DNA of 53,406 bases from contig JBGMRN010000001.1 in assembly GCA_048061535.1 (NCBI GenBank), forward strand, positions 12,703 to 66,108, written 5' to 3'. The translations under genes and the position numbers were made by a program. The stretch is from Thermoanaerobaculales bacterium (GTDB lineage: Bacteria > Acidobacteriota > Thermoanaerobaculia > Thermoanaerobaculales > Sulfomarinibacteraceae). Shown in pieces: positions 4,270 through 46,890 of this stretch; within the stretch, counting starts at the first letter, position 1; every line of letters begins with the position of its first letter. The notes below the pieces were generated by a model. That model saw only the letters and a list, made by a program, of their open reading frames with translations, did no database searches and had not been told where the DNA came from.

Positions 4270-4434
4270 CCTGTTCCCCTCCGGAAACTCCGAAGGGGAC
4301 GGCGCGGTCCTCGATGCTTCACGAGCGATTTTTCTGCAAGATCAAGGAAAACAAGGGTTTCCGCGGAGACGTACTCCCGTACGTCGCACAAGGAAATTCG
4401 CAGTAGCAGAAAGATGGTGGGATATGCGGGCTAG
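4267..4434 (+). mobile_element. MITE-like element, copy B1 (subfamily B)
   Basis: About 85 bp are near-identical to the reverse complement of 14026-14107. Termini are TAGCCTG at the 5' end and GCGGGCTAG at the 3' end. The 3' module AGAAAGATGGTGGGATATGCGGGCTA is shared with the A copies. Confidence 0.75.
4276..4298 (+). terminator. Hairpin directly after the ferritin stop (CCCCTCCGG-aaact-CCGAAGGGG), inside element B1
   Basis: 8 of 9 bp stem starting 7 nt after the TAG, with no U-tract. The homologous hairpin in copy B2 shows a compensatory G-C to A-T change. Confidence 0.35.
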
Positions 4435-13367: not shown

Positions 13368-13979
13368 ATGGCCACCTTGTGCATCGGCGTTGCGGGCGGA
13401 ACCGGCTCTGGCAAGACCACGATCGCCGAGGAAATCGTGCGCCGGGTCGGTCGCGACCGGATCGTCATCGTCAACCAGGACCGCTACTACCACGATCTCG
13501 CTCACCTCGACGAGCTGCAACGTGCTCAGCACAATTTCGACCACCCCGCCGCTGTCGAGGAAGGCCTTCTGGTCGAACACCTCTGTCTTCTCAAAGAGGG
13601 CCGGCCGGCGCCGCTCCCGGTTTACGACTTCGCTCATCACGTTCGATCCGCAGCCGAGGAATGGGTTGATCCCCGCTCAGTCATTCTCCTCGAAGGCATC
13701 CTGATCCTCGCGATACCCGCCATCAGGGAGCTTCTCGACGTGAAGATCTTCATCGACACCGACCCCGACCTTCGCTTCATTCGGCGACTGCAACGTGACA
13801 TCGCCGAGCGCGAGCGCTCGGTCGGAAGCGTCGTGGACCAGTACCTCACCTCGGTACGTCCGATGCACCTGGAGTTCGTCGAGCCCTCCAAGCGATGGGC
13901 CGACGTGATCATCCCCGAGGGCGGCTTCAACACCGTCGCCCTCGACATGGTCATCAGCCGCATTCTGCAGATGATCTAG
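13368..13979 (+). CDS. udk: Uridine kinase
   Basis: MATLCIGVAGGTGSGKTT P-loop and DHP/IILEGIL motifs. The TAG stop at 13977-13979 lies in the CTAG that flanks element B2. Confidence 0.9.
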   Translation: MATLCIGVAGGTGSGKTTIAEEIVRRVGRDRIVIVNQDRYYHDLAHLDELQRAQHNFDHPAAVEEGLLVEHLCLLKEGRPAPLPVYDFAHHVRSAAEEWVDPRSVILLEGILILAIPAIRELLDVKIFIDTDPDLRFIRRLQRDIAERERSVGSVVDQYLTSVRPMHLEFVEPSKRWADVIIPEGGFNTVALDMVISRILQMI

Positions 13980-13987
13980 CCCGTTCT

Positions 13988-14009
13988 CGTCCGGAAACGG
14001 CGCATTTTT
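13988..14009 (+). terminator. Intrinsic-terminator-like hairpin plus T-run after udk, inside B2
   Basis: CG(T)CCG-GAAA-CGGCG followed by CATTTTT, starting 9 nt after the udk stop. Confidence 0.45.
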
Positions 14010-14132
14010 GCAATCTCTGCGTCAAACTGCGAATTTCCTTGTGCGATGTACAGGAGTACGTCTCCGCGGAAATTCTTGTTTTCCTTGATCTTGCAGAAAA
14101 ATCGCTCGCTGCCGCATCGAAAACCGCGTTGT

Positions 14133-14157
14133 CCCTTCCAGAGTTTCTGGACGGAGG
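14133..14157 (-). terminator. Hairpin directly after the Hfq-like gene stop, inside B2
   Basis: The minus strand reads CCTCCGTCCAG-aaact-CTGGAAGGG. It is homologous to the B1 hairpin at 4276-4298 and has no U-tract. Confidence 0.3.
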
Positions 14158-14161
14158 CGGG

Positions 14162-14500
14162 CTAGCGAGTGGTGGGGGTGGAACGCCGGCGACGGCGAGT
14201 GCGCAGCTCCTCCTCCTTGAACATGAACTTGACCGTGTGCTTGAAAAGGAGCAGATTGGGGGCGTCTGTTCGGTTCAGCTTGATGCAATTCTTGTCATAC
14301 CACTCGATCCATCCACTGAGCTCGGTCCCGTCGGTCAGCACCACGACCATCGTGGTGCGATTCTGCATCTGTTTGAGGTAATAAAAGCTCTCCGCATTCG
14401 TCTGCTCAGCGGGCACCTGTTTGCGTCGACCCGTGGCTCGGGTCGGAAACCTCTCCATCATTTCGTTCATCGATGGCCGGATCAGCTTACGATCGGACAT
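14162..14500 (-). CDS. hfq: Hfq-like (Sm-fold) RNA-binding protein with an N-terminal extension and Arg-rich tail
   Basis: Sm1-like VVVLTDGTELSGWIEWYDKNCIKL and Sm2-like LLLFKHTVKFM. GAGGAGAG sits 5-6 nt before the ATG at 14500. C-terminus is RTRRRRRSTPTTR. Confidence 0.65.
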   Translation of the reverse strand: MSDRKLIRPSMNEMMERFPTRATGRRKQVPAEQTNAESFYYLKQMQNRTTMVVVLTDGTELSGWIEWYDKNCIKLNRTDAPNLLLFKHTVKFMFKEEELRTRRRRRSTPTTR

Positions 14501-14638
14501 TTCGTCTCTCCTCAAGCCCCATGCTGTGCCGCGCCGGGGACTGAAAGCGTGAAGTCTGTAGGTTCTGCGATCAGATTAACAGATTCCCCAACGGGTGTCG
14601 CCTCTGCGTCGACCTCGTGTTCACCTCCGCCAGAGGCA

Positions 14639-14838
14639 TACCCGGCGCCGAACCCACAAAATCAAACCAACCCACCAGATTTCGTCGCCAGAGGCGCATG
14701 GGGTTGTACGTGTCTGCGCTCTCGATGTTTTGGGAGCGAAGTCGTACTCGCGGTGCTTCGAGCGAGCAAATCGAGAAAGCGCAGACCTGCACCGTGCATT
14801 GTGCCCTGCATTAGAAAGATGGTGATTGGCTGGGGCTG
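14639..14838 (+). mobile_element. MITE-like element, copy A1 (subfamily A, degenerate ends)
   Basis: The core 14671-14825 aligns with 19441-19600 and 32462-32620. The 5' end carries a roughly 22-bp insertion and the 3' terminus has decayed to GGGGCTG. Confidence 0.7.
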
Positions 14839-19382: not shown

Positions 19383-19427
19383 TACCCCTCCCGGCGCCTC
19401 CTCAAAAGGTGTCGTTGCGAGGTTGGC

Positions 19428-19611
19428 AAGGCGCCATATTCCTCACCAGATTTCGTCGCGAAGGGTACAAGACGCTGTGCGTGTCTGCGCTCTCGCAAGG
19501 TTTGGGAGCGAAGTCGTACTTGCGGTACATCGAGCGAGCAAACCGAGAAAGCGCAGATACGCGCTGTGTATTGTGCCCCGTGGTAGAAAAATGGTGAGAT
19601 ATGCGGGCTAT
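19428..19611 (+). mobile_element. MITE-like element, copy A2 (subfamily A)
   Basis: Aligns over about 170 bp with A3 and A1. The 3' terminus TGGTGAGATATGCGGGCTA ends on the stop codon (19608-19610) of the convergent lipid kinase gene. Confidence 0.8.
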
Positions 19612-20495
19612 CCCGGCAGACGCACCCAAAGGGGACGCTCGTCGACTGAGATTTCGACCGGCAGACACCCGACAACATCACCGTCCACCTGGTACGGAAT
19701 ATCCCGGCCCGGGGATACCGGTTCGAGGCGAACGCGCGTTACGGTCTCGCACCGGACGTCTTCTCGCTGGAGGTGGCCGCCCCTGGGTATGCCAACGAGA
19801 AATGAAAGCGCTGCCCACCGACCAACGCTCCGCTGCAGAACGACTTCGAGGTCGTCCCGGAAGGGATCGGCGCCGGGGGTCACCTGCTGGGGGCCCGCAT
19901 AACACCGGGAATTGCCGATGACCGCCCACCCGCTCTCTTCCGACCGGCATCCGATTACGACCCGGAAGCGTGGAAGGGGGCCCCTTCCAAACGCCTCCAG
20001 GACCGCCTGCATGGCAATGCCCACCCTCCCTCCGAGTCGTTTGAGCGAAGGACGCAGGCTCGATAGAACCTGCGAGTCGGGTCCGGCCGAAACCATCAGC
20101 AAAATGAGGTCACCACGATCGCTGCACGCCACCCTCATCGCTCGATCCTCGCCGGCGATCAAAGCGGTCACGGCCCGCGCAGCCGGTCGAGGCACACCGA
20201 ACTCGTACGCGAGAACCGAAGTGGTACCACCGGGAAGCACCCCCATCGGCGTCGCGCTGCCGAGCAGGCCTCGCGCTACCTCGTTGTACGTGCCGTCACC
20301 GCCGTAGGCGAGAACCAGCGGTCGATCCTCCCGAGCCGCCCGCGAGGCCAATTCGGTCGCATGACCGGGCTCGCGGGTCAGCCACCACTCGAGCGTCACA
20401 CCCGCAGCCTCGGCGGCGGCATCGAGTCTCTTTCTCCCCCGGAGCAACCGCCCGCCGCCGGCAGCGGGGTTCAGGATCACCGGAATCGAGGTCAA
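19608..20495 (-). CDS. Diacylglycerol/lipid kinase family protein (YegS/BmrU-like)
   Basis: DAGK catalytic-domain motifs ([21 protein letters not shown]). Confidence 0.85.
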
Positions 20496-21520
20496 TCGTG
20501 ATCCTCGAAGAGGCGGGCGGCATCACCGCCCGGCTCGAGTCCAAGGTGGCGGTAGGCGCGCGCGGTCACAGCGCGCCCGCGCGGGGTCCGTTGCAGCATT
20601 CCGATCTGGAGCAGATACGGCTCGTGAATGTCTTCGAGAGTCCCGCGGTCCTCACCGATCGAGGCGGCCAGGGCCCTGAGACCCACCGGGCCCCCGTCAT
20701 AAACGTCGATGATAGTGGTCAGAAGCTGACGGTCGAGTTGTTCAAGACCAAACGCATCCACCTGCATCTGCTCCAGTCCCCACTCGGTGGCCTCGTGGGT
20801 GATGACCTCGGAACCCAGATGGTGTGCGAAGTCACGGACCCGCCGCAGGAGACGATTGGCAATTCGCGGCGTGCCGCGCGCCCGTCGTGCGATCTCCTCC
20901 GCGGCATTCTTCTCGACCTCGATGCCGAGGATGCCCGAGGAGCGATTGACGATGGTCGAGAGGTCCGAACTCGGGTAGAACTCGAGGTGGTGGACGATGC
21001 CGAACCGATCGCGCAGGGGTGCGGTGAGGAGCCCGGTGCGGGTTGTCGCGCCGACCAAAGTGAAGCGTGGCAACGTCAGTCGCACACTGCGAGCCGCCGG
21101 TCCCTGGCCGATCACGAGATCGAGCTCAAAATCCTCCATCGCCGGGTAGAGGACCTCCTCGACCGCCGGTGACATCCGGTGGATCTCGTCGACGAAGAGC
21201 ACATCCCCGGCCTCGAGGTTGGTGAGCATGGCGGCGAGATCGCCGGGGCGTTCGAGGACCGGTCCGGAGGTGATTTGAAGCTGCGCACCCATCTCTTGAG
21301 CGATTATGTGTGCGAGGGTGGTCTTTCCGAGCCCGGGAGGACCAAAGAAGAGCACGTGGTCCAGGGCCTCGGCCCGGTCCCTGGCGGCGCCAATGAACAC
21401 TCCGAGGTTGGTCTTGAGCCGGGTCTGGCCTACGAACTCATCGAGCCGGCGCGGCCGGAGAGACTCCTCGGCCGGAACTTCACCCGGCTGAACTCCCGCG
21501 GCCAGGACATCGTCTCTCAT
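20492..21520 (-). CDS. ruvB: Holliday junction branch migration helicase RuvB
   Basis: Walker [10 protein letters not shown], Walker B LFVDEIH, and a RuvB C-terminal domain. Confidence 0.95.
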
Positions 21521-21598
21521 GGTGCGACTCTACCCTATCTCGAGAGGAACGGTTGCCGGTGACACGCGCCCCCGAAGGATCACCGCCGATTTTGGCGG

Positions 21599-22177
21599 TC
21601 ACCTCATCAGCTTCTGCAGCGCCTGACGCAGCACCTCTCCGAGGCCCTCGCCGGAAACACCTTCCCACACCGCGTCAACAGCCCGTCCCGCGTCGCGGTG
21701 CGAGTAGCCGAGGTTCACCAGGGCCGAAATCGCGTCAGCGCGCCGGTCGTCGGACGCGGGTCCGGACCCGGCCTCCCCTCCGGAGAGGCGGTCCTTGAGC
21801 TCGAGCACGATCCGTTCCGCTGTCTTGCGGCCGACTCCCGGGCTCTTCTGCAGGCGGGCGAGGTCTCCCGCCTGAACGGTCCGTGCCAGTTCATCCGCGG
21901 TGAGGGCCGAAAGAACGCCGAGGGCGGTCCGCGGGCCGATGCCGGCGACTCCGATCAGTTTCTCGAAAGCCTCGAGCTCTTCGCGCGCCGGAAATCCAAA
22001 GAGCACGATTGCGTCATTGCGAACCTGGGTGTGGATCCACAACGCGGCATCTTCTCGACCCGTGAGTTCCTGGAATCCACGCAGAGTCGTCGACACCAGG
22101 TATCCGACCCCCCCTGCGTCGATGAGGACCGTGCCCGGCTCCACCCGATGGAGACGGCCTTCGAGGCGGCCGATCAT
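21599..22177 (-). CDS. ruvA: Holliday junction DNA-binding protein RuvA
   Basis: MIGRLEG N-terminus and HhH motifs (GIGPRTA, GVGRKTAERI). Confidence 0.93.
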   Translation of the reverse strand: MIGRLEGRLHRVEPGTVLIDAGGVGYLVSTTLRGFQELTGREDAALWIHTQVRNDAIVLFGFPAREELEAFEKLIGVAGIGPRTALGVLSALTADELARTVQAGDLARLQKSPGVGRKTAERIVLELKDRLSGGEAGSGPASDDRRADAISALVNLGYSHRDAGRAVDAVWEGVSGEGLGEVLRQALQKLMR

Positions 22178-32453: not shown

Positions 32454-32632
32454 CCCGCTTTTCTCACCAGATTTCGTCGCGAGGGGTACAAGACGCAATG
32501 CGTGTCTGCGCTCTCGCAAGGTTTGGGAGCGAAGTCGTACTGGCGGTGAATCGAGCGAGCAAACCGAGAAAGCGCGGACCCGCGCTGTGTATTGTGCCCC
32601 ACAGTAGAAAGATCGTGAGATATGCGGGTTAG
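32450..32632 (+). mobile_element. MITE-like element, copy A3 (subfamily A archetype), flanked by TTAG direct repeats
   Basis: Left end TTAG|CCCGCTTTTCTCACCAGATTT and right end AAAGATCGTGAGATATGCGGG|TTAG. The terminal inverted repeats (TIRs) match at 8 of 8 and 7 of 8 positions across the two blocks. A long imperfect internal hairpin includes GTCTGCGCTCTCG/CGAGAAAGCGCGGAC. Confidence 0.85.
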
Positions 32633-46684: not shown

Positions 46685-46890
46685 CGGCCCACTTTTCTCA
46701 CCGCCCCCCGATTTCAGCGTTTTCGGGAACCGGTAGGGCGAAAGATCGGGGAGCGGAGAGAAAACCGGCCGGTCTTTTTGGTCTGACCCCTGCCGCCTGG
46801 TTATTCCCTGGTCAGGGCGGGATTCCCCGATCCCTTTCACGAACTCTGTCTTTCCAATAGATTCTTGGGGGCGAGGAGAAAAGCGGGAAA
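46685..46890 (+). mobile_element. MITE-like element, copy D1 (divergent core), filling the lexA to tRNA-Pro spacer
   Basis: The 5' end GGCCCACTTTTCTCACC..GATTTCAGCG resembles the A3 5' end GCCCGCTTTTCTCACCAGATTTCGTCG. The 3' end AATAGATTCTTGGGGGCGAGGAGAAAAGCGGG resembles GGTAGAAAAATGGTGAGATATGCGGG. It also has a long internal hairpin (GATCGGGGA/TCCCCGATC). Confidence 0.55.

Follow-up and report, generated by a model that had tools for sequence, protein, structure and literature searches.

Two convergent genes of a Thermoanaerobaculales bacterium, udk and hfq, are separated by exactly 182 bp, and the stop codons of both lie in CTAG tetranucleotides that frame this gap. The locus belongs to a 53,406-nt stretch of contig JBGMRN010000001.1 (positions 12,703 to 66,108; the whole stretch analysed here, hereafter the window), in which the gap, referred to below as element B2, extends from 13980 to 14161, starts with CCCG and ends with CGGG. 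It raises the question of how a non-coding element came to fill the space between two genes exactly and to provide the stops of both. Our answer is that B2 is probably a copy, dead in place, of a non-coding, non-autonomous DNA transposon, i.e., a miniature transposable element with inverted repeats (MITE) of a family that we call B-type, whose TAG-containing borders are used as both stop codons and whose history at this site was nested. The locus arose in more than one step, not by one clean insertion, and is a tidy but fairly ordinary case.

According to the sequence and the list of open reading frames (ORFs), udk (uridine kinase; 13368-13979, plus strand) ends with ...ATG ATC TAG, and its product matches Pfam PF00485 (E=4.7e-39). 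The hfq gene (14162-14515, minus strand; the annotated 112-aa form begins at 14500) codes for a protein with Pfam domains PF17209 and PF21979 that is 100% identical to P0001, the NCBI 'RNA chaperone Hfq' of a Thermoanaerobaculales metagenome-assembled genome (MAG); its TAG stop on the minus strand is seen as cta in the forward strand. An earlier note, made from the sequence alone, had described the arrangement CTAG/CCCG, 182 bp, CGGG/CTAG (here and below, a slash marks an element boundary) with both stops inside the CTAGs, and these facts are as it gave them. B2 also carries CCCGYYCTCSGTCCRGAAAC at both ends, and GCTAG forms a 5-nt direct repeat at its two borders. Since CTAG is strongly depleted in the window (12 occurrences versus ca. 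183 expected from base composition, or about 15-fold), the border arrangement is not a matter of chance; three of the 12 CTAGs border B2 or B1, the other B-type copy of the window. TTAG (7) and CTAA (10) are likewise rare there. CTAG is a palindrome and, therefore, a direct duplication and an inverted repeat are not separable at B2. The small hairpins that had been placed right after each stop are present: next to udk lies CCG-GAAA-CGG with a T5 run, and next to hfq CCAGA-AAC-TCTGG. Neither strand of 13800-14400 contained a terminator-like site in a scan for GC-rich stems (≥5 bp) with a T-run behind them, and these hairpins should not be named terminators.

B2 belongs to a dispersed family. 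A 20-mer from the B core was scanned against representative genomes and retrieved one true homologue, located just upstream of a tRNA in a MAG labelled 'delta proteobacterium', and two chance matches. The sequence common to B2 and this copy served as a two-block search pattern, which matched 114 metagenome stretches; some 80 of them are true homologues with the block spacing constant at 78-79 nt. They reside on contigs of 37-62% GC, several large contigs having more than one copy. When a family profile was built without B2 and searched with nhmmer, B2 was matched at 13985-14155 (E=2.4e-35; envelope 13983-14158; profile positions 4-174). The B-type repeat is ca. 175 nt long and its body in B2 is 176 bp, with ends that by homology read GCCTCCGTCC... 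toward hfq and ...GGACGAGAAC toward udk. At either end of B2 the profile falls 3 nt short, leaving the CCC and GGG at the edges outside the family model.

B-type elements have imperfect terminal inverted repeats, GTGYCCATCC...GGATGGAMAC (GTTCYCRTCCGGAAAC in the Thermoanaerobaculales lineage), and carry the terminal repeat a further time in their interior. The typical layout is TARYTA/G-TG(C/T)CCATCC, a hairpin, the internal repeat GTTTCCAATTCAGAAATGAG, the core and CCATTTCTGGATGGAAAC/TARYTA. Variants span 70-225 nt, and related ones of 70-160 nt have perfect ends GTGTCCATCC...GGATGGACAC in common. There is no conserved reading frame, because indels occur in lengths not divisible by three and stops arise in covarying variants (e.g., that of L049). 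Coding readings of the arms (MALFRNLCV... and QIDAEIAEKGHFWMET) were rejected, the ATG not being conserved and the covarying variants introducing stops. With its 182 bp, lack of coding capacity and terminal inverted repeats, a target duplication that in the family varies between copies, and dispersed copies (two in the window, one in contig L134 of a relative and ca. 80 metagenomic) that differ in presence or absence between relatives, B2 has the features of the non-autonomous mobile element that the earlier note had supposed it to be.

Several observations concern the structure and surroundings of individual copies. Elements in tandem that have a single duplicated target in common, and mini variants of ca. 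70-85 nt that consist of scarcely more than the two terminal repeats, occur at L080 8390-8600, L087 4400-4475 and L076 7170-7255; the 5' hairpin module of the B-type family (family 1) may be such a mini element, captured in tandem. GC-rich extra hairpins of 30-50 nt occupy two fixed positions in the right arm of L015, L025, L047, L099, L106 and L111, while in L020, L030 and L108 the apical hairpin is swapped for an unrelated one. Copies lie directly upstream of tRNA genes at L002 7414-7700 and L086 ~980-1200. The udk protein of the window is also encoded on Logan contig L001 (SRR30158470, 9665 bp), which comes from a separate assembly of this organism and ends inside B1 on one side and inside B2 on the other, since both are repeats and induce assembly breaks.

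The B-type family appears to be undescribed yet widespread in sediment metagenomes. Rfam 15 at the gathering threshold recognized only three tRNAs in the whole window, permissive Rfam searches of B2 and of the L002 copy yielded only E values >2, and a full-text literature search with the B-type core sequence found no paper. A blastn search of PLSDB plasmids with a typical B-type copy produced no match.

The duplication of target DNA was analyzed using 55 copies with both ends defined. The 7-nt flanks were equal at six or more of the seven positions in 23 copies, versus 2.8 expected with shuffled pairing. Positions 1-6 co-vary between left and right (for example, TAGCTT, CAGGTA, TGGTTA, TAGATG, TAGGCT and TAACTC). 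At position 7, the left flank has G in 45 of the 55 copies, but the right flank usually has A; it follows that 6 bp are duplicated and that the G already belongs to the element, as the first base of its GT...AC ends. Perfect duplications are exemplified by TAGCCC/TAGCCC in L134 and TAGTTA/TAGTTA in L080. Direct-repeat flanks had been predicted for other copies and are present; the predicted length of 4 bp (YTAG) is at variance with the 6 bp that abut the GT...AC ends, and fits only the outer CCCG shell of B2 and A32, a member of a second repeat family considered below.

The target consensus, T-A-R-Y-T-A, is a palindrome that amounts to a stop codon on each strand. Since the terminal G...C of the element adjoins the TA of the target, each border contains an inward-reading TAG, and a gene running into the element is therefore brought to an immediate end in that frame. 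An ORF of ≥80 codons stops in the duplication or the terminal base at 32 of the 127 boundaries of metagenome copies (11 of 66 left and 21 of 61 right), versus 18 of 227 unoccupied TARYTA sites on the same contigs (Fisher p=2e-5; p=0.005 with offsets -6 and -2 only). This excess comes partly from the motif itself and partly from the survival of harmless insertions. In the window, a TAG beside a terminus supplies the stops of the ferritin (B1), RNase E/G (A32) and DAGK-like (A19) genes as well as those of udk and hfq, and the udk stop of L119 is another case. Stop codons in element borders, first pointed out for B2, are therefore recurrent.

We then compared orthologous loci, which were found through Hfq homologues and share the synteny PSP1, hfq and then convergent udk, TPR and ProDH. 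B2 is absent from the hfq-udk site in all nine related contigs. In L121-123 (Hfq 97% identical), hfq ends with ...CGC TGA and is followed by a 74-nt unique spacer and then by the CTAG with the udk stop. The similarity of the L121 spacer to B2 is marginal (z ~2.5; 5 of 200 shuffles were as good) and, for this reason, we treat it as empty rather than as a decayed copy; its similarity to A-type sequence is not significant either. In L119 and L120 (Hfq 96%) hfq also ends with TGA, and the udk-side end of the 68-nt spacer is an A-type terminus, ...GGTGAGATAAGCGGG/CTAG (z=11 versus A32). In L124-127 (Hfq 92%) udk and hfq each end with TGA and are separated by a 32-nt hairpin spacer. The site has been struck by different elements, and its ancestral state is not a shared CTAG. 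Since the relatives have TGA and a 68-74-nt spacer, the state seen in the window required loss or replacement of the spacer and a TGA-to-TAG change. The window departs from L121 exactly behind CGCT, and the two match again from CTAGA on, as would fit a deletion at CT microhomology.

Two further sites could be compared with L134, a 13.5-kb contig that is the same contig as L119. Its ruvA-ruvB spacer (L134 2680-2959) houses a B-type copy, TAGCCC/GTTCCCATCC...GGACGGGAAC/TAGCCC, with GTTCCC...GGGAAC ends (profile E=5.2e-32), which has inserted at the left terminus of a mini element of A-type (83 nt). The ruvA-ruvB spacer of the window (21500-21620) is 75 nt long and has neither a B nor an A element; the two spacers differ wholesale and reveal no clean insertion. 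The A19 site is empty in L134, where the DAGK gene ends with ...ATG TCC TGA and a 6-nt gap, GGGGAA, precedes the CTA of the PALP gene. In the window, the DAGK-like gene ends with ...CCG GGA TAG/CCCGCATATC, i.e., at a new stop that changes the C-terminus from LPMS* to LPG*. A 7-nt direct repeat, GCCGGGA, brackets A19 together with 47 extra nt (window 19383-19620 versus L134 4860-4895), and taking the insert out does not give the DAGK-like gene a stop again. The view that such elements enter stop codons without disrupting either gene finds no support in this comparison, given the spacer loss and TGA-to-TAG change at hfq-udk and the altered C-terminus at A19. The expectation of empty sites in relatives is borne out as far as the absence of B2 goes, with no clean filled and empty pair.

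The A-type family has ends CCCGCWTWTCTCACC...GGTGAGATATGCGGG (CCCGC...GCGGG) and YTAG flanks, its ends reading NTAG/CCCGC. A and B elements nest because the border of each recreates the TAG-containing target of the other. All three B copies of the lineage (B1, B2 and that of L134) have TAGCC(C/T) on the left, and two of them, B1 and the L134 copy, are in physical continuity with A-type sequence. B1 is a chimera in which CAGT microhomology marks the junction to A-type sequence, namely the 26 nt that form the end of such an element; B1 has unlike flanks (GTAG at 4266-69, which holds the ferritin stop, versus CTAG at 4431-34), and its core, in the opposite orientation, is 95% identical to that of B2 over 83 nt. 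The 6-mers adjoining the B2 body, TAGCCC and GGGCTA, are inverted rather than direct. An inversion between B1 and B2 as their source was ruled out, the hfq-udk adjacency being syntenic in all relatives.

These data demonstrate that B2 belongs to the family, that the element is mobile, that the duplications follow a 6-bp rule and what the relatives have at this site; the nested history of the locus may be reconstructed from them as follows. A transposase supplied in trans would cut with a 6-bp stagger, and the B target in this lineage would be the TAG/CCC junction, i.e., the flank and first bases of an A-type element. The CCC/GGG and CTAG shell of B2 would be the remnant of such an element and its flanks; we read it in this way because all three lineage B copies sit on TAG/CCC and because L119 has an A terminus at the udk stop. 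The A-type interior may have been lost by deletion or because two B elements, each inserted at one of the A termini, recombined with each other, and a later deletion or recombination would have removed the ancestral 68-74-nt hfq-udk spacer. Both convergent genes now stop at border TAGs, with the hfq TAG replacing the ancestral TGA at the same codon.

A number of points weigh against B2 being a MITE copy with this history. B2 itself has no direct 6-bp duplication, and its own insertion event is not readable from inverted 6-mers. None of the four sites compared provides a clean filled-versus-empty pair, their spacers differing wholesale, and the nested and deletion history is a reconstruction. 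Three A-type ends of the window have no TAG flank; only A32 has both ends intact, so that the A-type 4-bp duplication is a matter of one copy and one three-out-of-four case. Neither a transposase nor an autonomous partner came to light in the window, the fetched loci (720 kb), the PLSDB plasmids or the IMG/VR viral contigs, and the related autonomous element with the same ends that had been expected did not turn up; matches of the terminal-repeat profile away from known copies were only small variants (70-160 nt) or solo ends by ordinary genes, and two viral-contig scans gave only chance matches within phage genes. Finally, identity of ca. 75-80% across hosts of 37-62% GC, together with compensatory changes and a G·U excess (see below), is more than a passive MITE needs. 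The two invariant blocks of the alignment are ascertainment artefacts, since they were the search pattern itself.

Could B2 instead have arrived in one event? An element with CCCG...CGGG ends inserted into a CTAG shared by overlapping stops, with a 4-bp duplication of the IS5 type, would have left both genes intact, and the matching empty site would read ...CGCTAGATC...; the CTAG flanks and the CCCG/CGGG ends do exist, the window has few CTAGs, and the non-palindromic TTAG/TTAG flanks of A32 agree with such a duplication. We consider this improbable: the relatives have an hfq TGA and a 68-74-nt or 32-nt spacer, never an overlap; the family profile ends 3 nt inside each CCCG/CGGG; homologues, including the copy in the 96%-Hfq relative, duplicate 6 bp by GT...AC ends; and CTAG as a palindrome is equally part of an inverted repeat. 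IS5-group ends start with GG or GA, which those of B2 do not. Somewhat better placed, though still unlikely, is a variant in which B2, endowed with lineage-specific CCCG termini, inserted at the udk CTAG of an L121-like ancestor with a 4-5-bp (G)CTAG duplication, and a later 76-nt deletion between the CT of CGCT/GA and the CT of TTCCT/AG (slashes here mark the breakpoints) removed the spacer and joined hfq to the left duplicate. It accommodates the udk stop lying in CTAG in L119, L121 and the window, the breakpoints shared with L121 and the GCTAG direct repeat. The deletion step is hypothetical, however, the B copy of L134 is without GGG on the right and is flanked by a duplication of 6 bp, and TAGCC(C/T) to the left of all three lineage copies is expected of an A-type target but not if CCC is part of B. 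The nested MITE copy is preferred.

The fold of the B-type family was derived with RNAalifold from 34 copies. The consensus has five helices and 46 pairs, with 96.9% of cells paired. Eighteen pairs have changes on both sides, versus 9.7±1.8 in column shuffles (none of 500 reached 18) and 4-7 in slid controls; such double changes affect five of six pairs of helix 4 and four of eight pairs of helix 5. Helices 1-3 are explicable by co-evolving inverted repeats because they pair the two arms. Helices 4 and 5, which form the central stem-loop, covary as well, and co-evolution of terminal repeats cannot explain them. G·U cells (ca. 63) exceed A·C cells (ca. 18) on the strand with hfq sense in the window. 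The B2 minus strand has a minimum free energy of -74.6 kcal/mol (z=-5.0) and reproduces the consensus fold; B2 and the L134 copy are 77% identical, with compensatory differences between them.

One may ask whether B2 is primarily a structured RNA, either a 3'-untranslated region element or terminator or an Hfq-linked small RNA, or whether the fold is needed for the movement of the element itself. The strong covariation in five helices including the central hairpin, the swapped-in or extra hairpins at fixed points of some copies, the preponderance of G·U over A·C on one strand and the pairs kept by B2 and the L134 copy despite their divergence all speak for this, and without an Rfam match such an RNA would be undescribed. 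It is nevertheless very unlikely. The duplicated targets, the copies found nested or in tandem, the size range of 70-225 nt among variants and the polymorphism of sites are characteristic of a DNA transposon, long inverted repeats can account for helices 1-3, and adjacency to hfq is unique to the B2 copy. The structured strand has no preferred orientation relative to genes reading in (20 of 66 left and 29 of 61 right boundaries), and no terminator or promoter consensus was found, the scans being negative or at background level. A related, rather remote option is that the B-type core is a functional structured RNA or single-stranded DNA carried by the transposon, e.g., one needed for mobilisation or a portable 3'-end RNA module; this would explain the compensatory upkeep of five helices across hosts of 37-62% GC and the lack of an Rfam match. 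The coordinates of B2 and of the other repeats of the window are collected in Table 1.

Table 1. Parts of element B2 and other repeat copies in the window (a slash marks an element boundary)
Feature	Position	Strand	Basis or remark
udk-side CTAG border, holds udk stop (13977-13979)	13976-13979		Sequence; same GGG/CTAGA junction at udk in L119, there the end of an A-type terminus
Outer CCC, outside the family model; putative last 3 nt of an A-type (CCCGC...) terminus	13980-13982		Profile envelope; A-type ends read NTAG/CCCGC
B2 body, B-type homologue; structured strand is hfq-sense	13983-14158	-	nhmmer, fold
Right terminal repeat R1 (GCCGTTTCCGGACGAGAAC), pairs with L2	13983-14001	-	
Helix 2, 3' strand (TTGCAAAAATGC)	14002-14013	-	C-G to U-A compensatory change versus most copies
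Central stem (GAATTTCC/GGAAATTC; here the slash separates the two strands) around apical hairpin GCGGAGACGTAC-TCCT-GTACATCGC (helices 4 and 5)	14031-14075	-	
Helix 2, 5' strand (GATTTTTCTGCAA)	14091-14103	-	
L2, internal direct copy of terminal repeat	14105-14125	-	
Left terminal repeat L1, with own hairpin CCAGA-AAC-TCTGG	14131-14158	-	
Outer GGG (CCC on minus strand), outside the family model	14159-14161		Profile envelope
hfq-side CTAG border, holds hfq stop (minus strand, 14162-14164)	14162-14165		Relatives have TGA at same codon position
B1, B-type left part (~4273-4409) and A-type right terminus (~4405-4430)	4270-4430	+	nhmmer E=3.7e-21
A-type copy	~14640-14830		
A19, A-type, degenerate left end	19425-19607	+	Right flank CTA (19608-10) is stop of DAGK-like gene on minus strand
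A32, A-type, intact CCCGC...GCGGG ends	32454-32628	+	Non-palindromic direct flanks TTAG and TTAG; left TAG is RNase E/G stop
Degenerate A-type piece	46688-46888		
Solo A-type end	48351		Neighbours are SNF symporter and ATP synthase genes, no transposase

MITEs are described in reviews as having direct repeats, terminal inverted repeats and stable stem-loop transcripts, and as inserting into one another (PMC10969869). The B-type family resembles prokaryotic MITEs such as the Correia/NEMIS elements of Neisseria (PMC10969869, PMC2229807) in being ca. 100-200 bp long and non-coding with terminal inverted repeats, in duplicating a short TA-containing target, in its many dispersed copies, mostly intergenic and near gene ends, in the long stem-loop transcripts predicted for it, and in its size variants and chimeras. 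It differs in duplicating 6 bp (TARYTA), whereas Correia elements duplicate TA, in its unrelated sequence, in the internal third copy of the terminal repeat and the multi-helix core supported by covariation, in having no known partner insertion sequence (IS), and in its hosts, which are sediment bacteria (the 'delta proteobacterium' MAG for one copy, other contigs being unclassified) and the Thermoanaerobaculales lineage. As with pneumococcal BOX, RUP and SPRITE (PMC10969869), two unrelated small repeats share targets and occur nested, in tandem and as chimeras (L134, B1 and L080). The sequences and hosts of the A and B families are different from those of the pneumococcal repeats, and the cause of nesting is simple, the borders recreating the TAG target.

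As to the transposase, the YTAG/CTAG flanks beside the CCCG(C) ends of A32, B1 and B2 recall the IS5 group of ISfinder, which duplicates 4 bp, YTAR; IS1380 duplicates 4-5 bp. IS701, too, gives exactly 4-bp duplications (PMC2266710) and, therefore, this length is not diagnostic of IS5. The B-type body, unlike the IS5 group, obeys the 6-bp rule, and no IS5-like partner was found in the sequences searched, so that the IS5-group origin proposed for B2 is unsupported. An IS630/Tc1-type MITE with a TA-only duplication within CTAG was ruled out by the left/right covariation of flank positions 1-6. Derivatives of IS200/IS605 (PATE, TnpB omega-RNA) and IS110 bridge-RNA elements were ruled out by the terminal inverted repeats and duplications; the Rfam models IS605-orfB and HEARO matched neither the window nor B2 nor the L002 copy. 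The IS481 family, with its 6-bp duplication at NCTAGN and TGT ends, and the ISDol1 group of ISNCY, with a 6-7-bp duplication, may serve as leads only: the B-type family likewise duplicates 6 bp of a TAG-containing palindromic target and has ends with TGT (G-TGTCC...GGACA-C), but its target is TARYTA and not the NCTAGN of IS481.

The evidence presented here requires no new kind of system, and the conserved fold is the one feature that could raise the significance of the family. The B-type target consists of two back-to-back stops (TAR/YTA, the slash separating the two) and, with the terminal G...C of the element, yields an inward TAG at each border, which makes insertion at the 3' ends of genes nearly harmless. 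For annotation, both stops at this locus and those of at least three other genes of the window derive from repeat borders; for this reason, gene callers and comparative work should reckon with TGA-to-TAG switches and minor changes of the C-terminus at sites of insertion.

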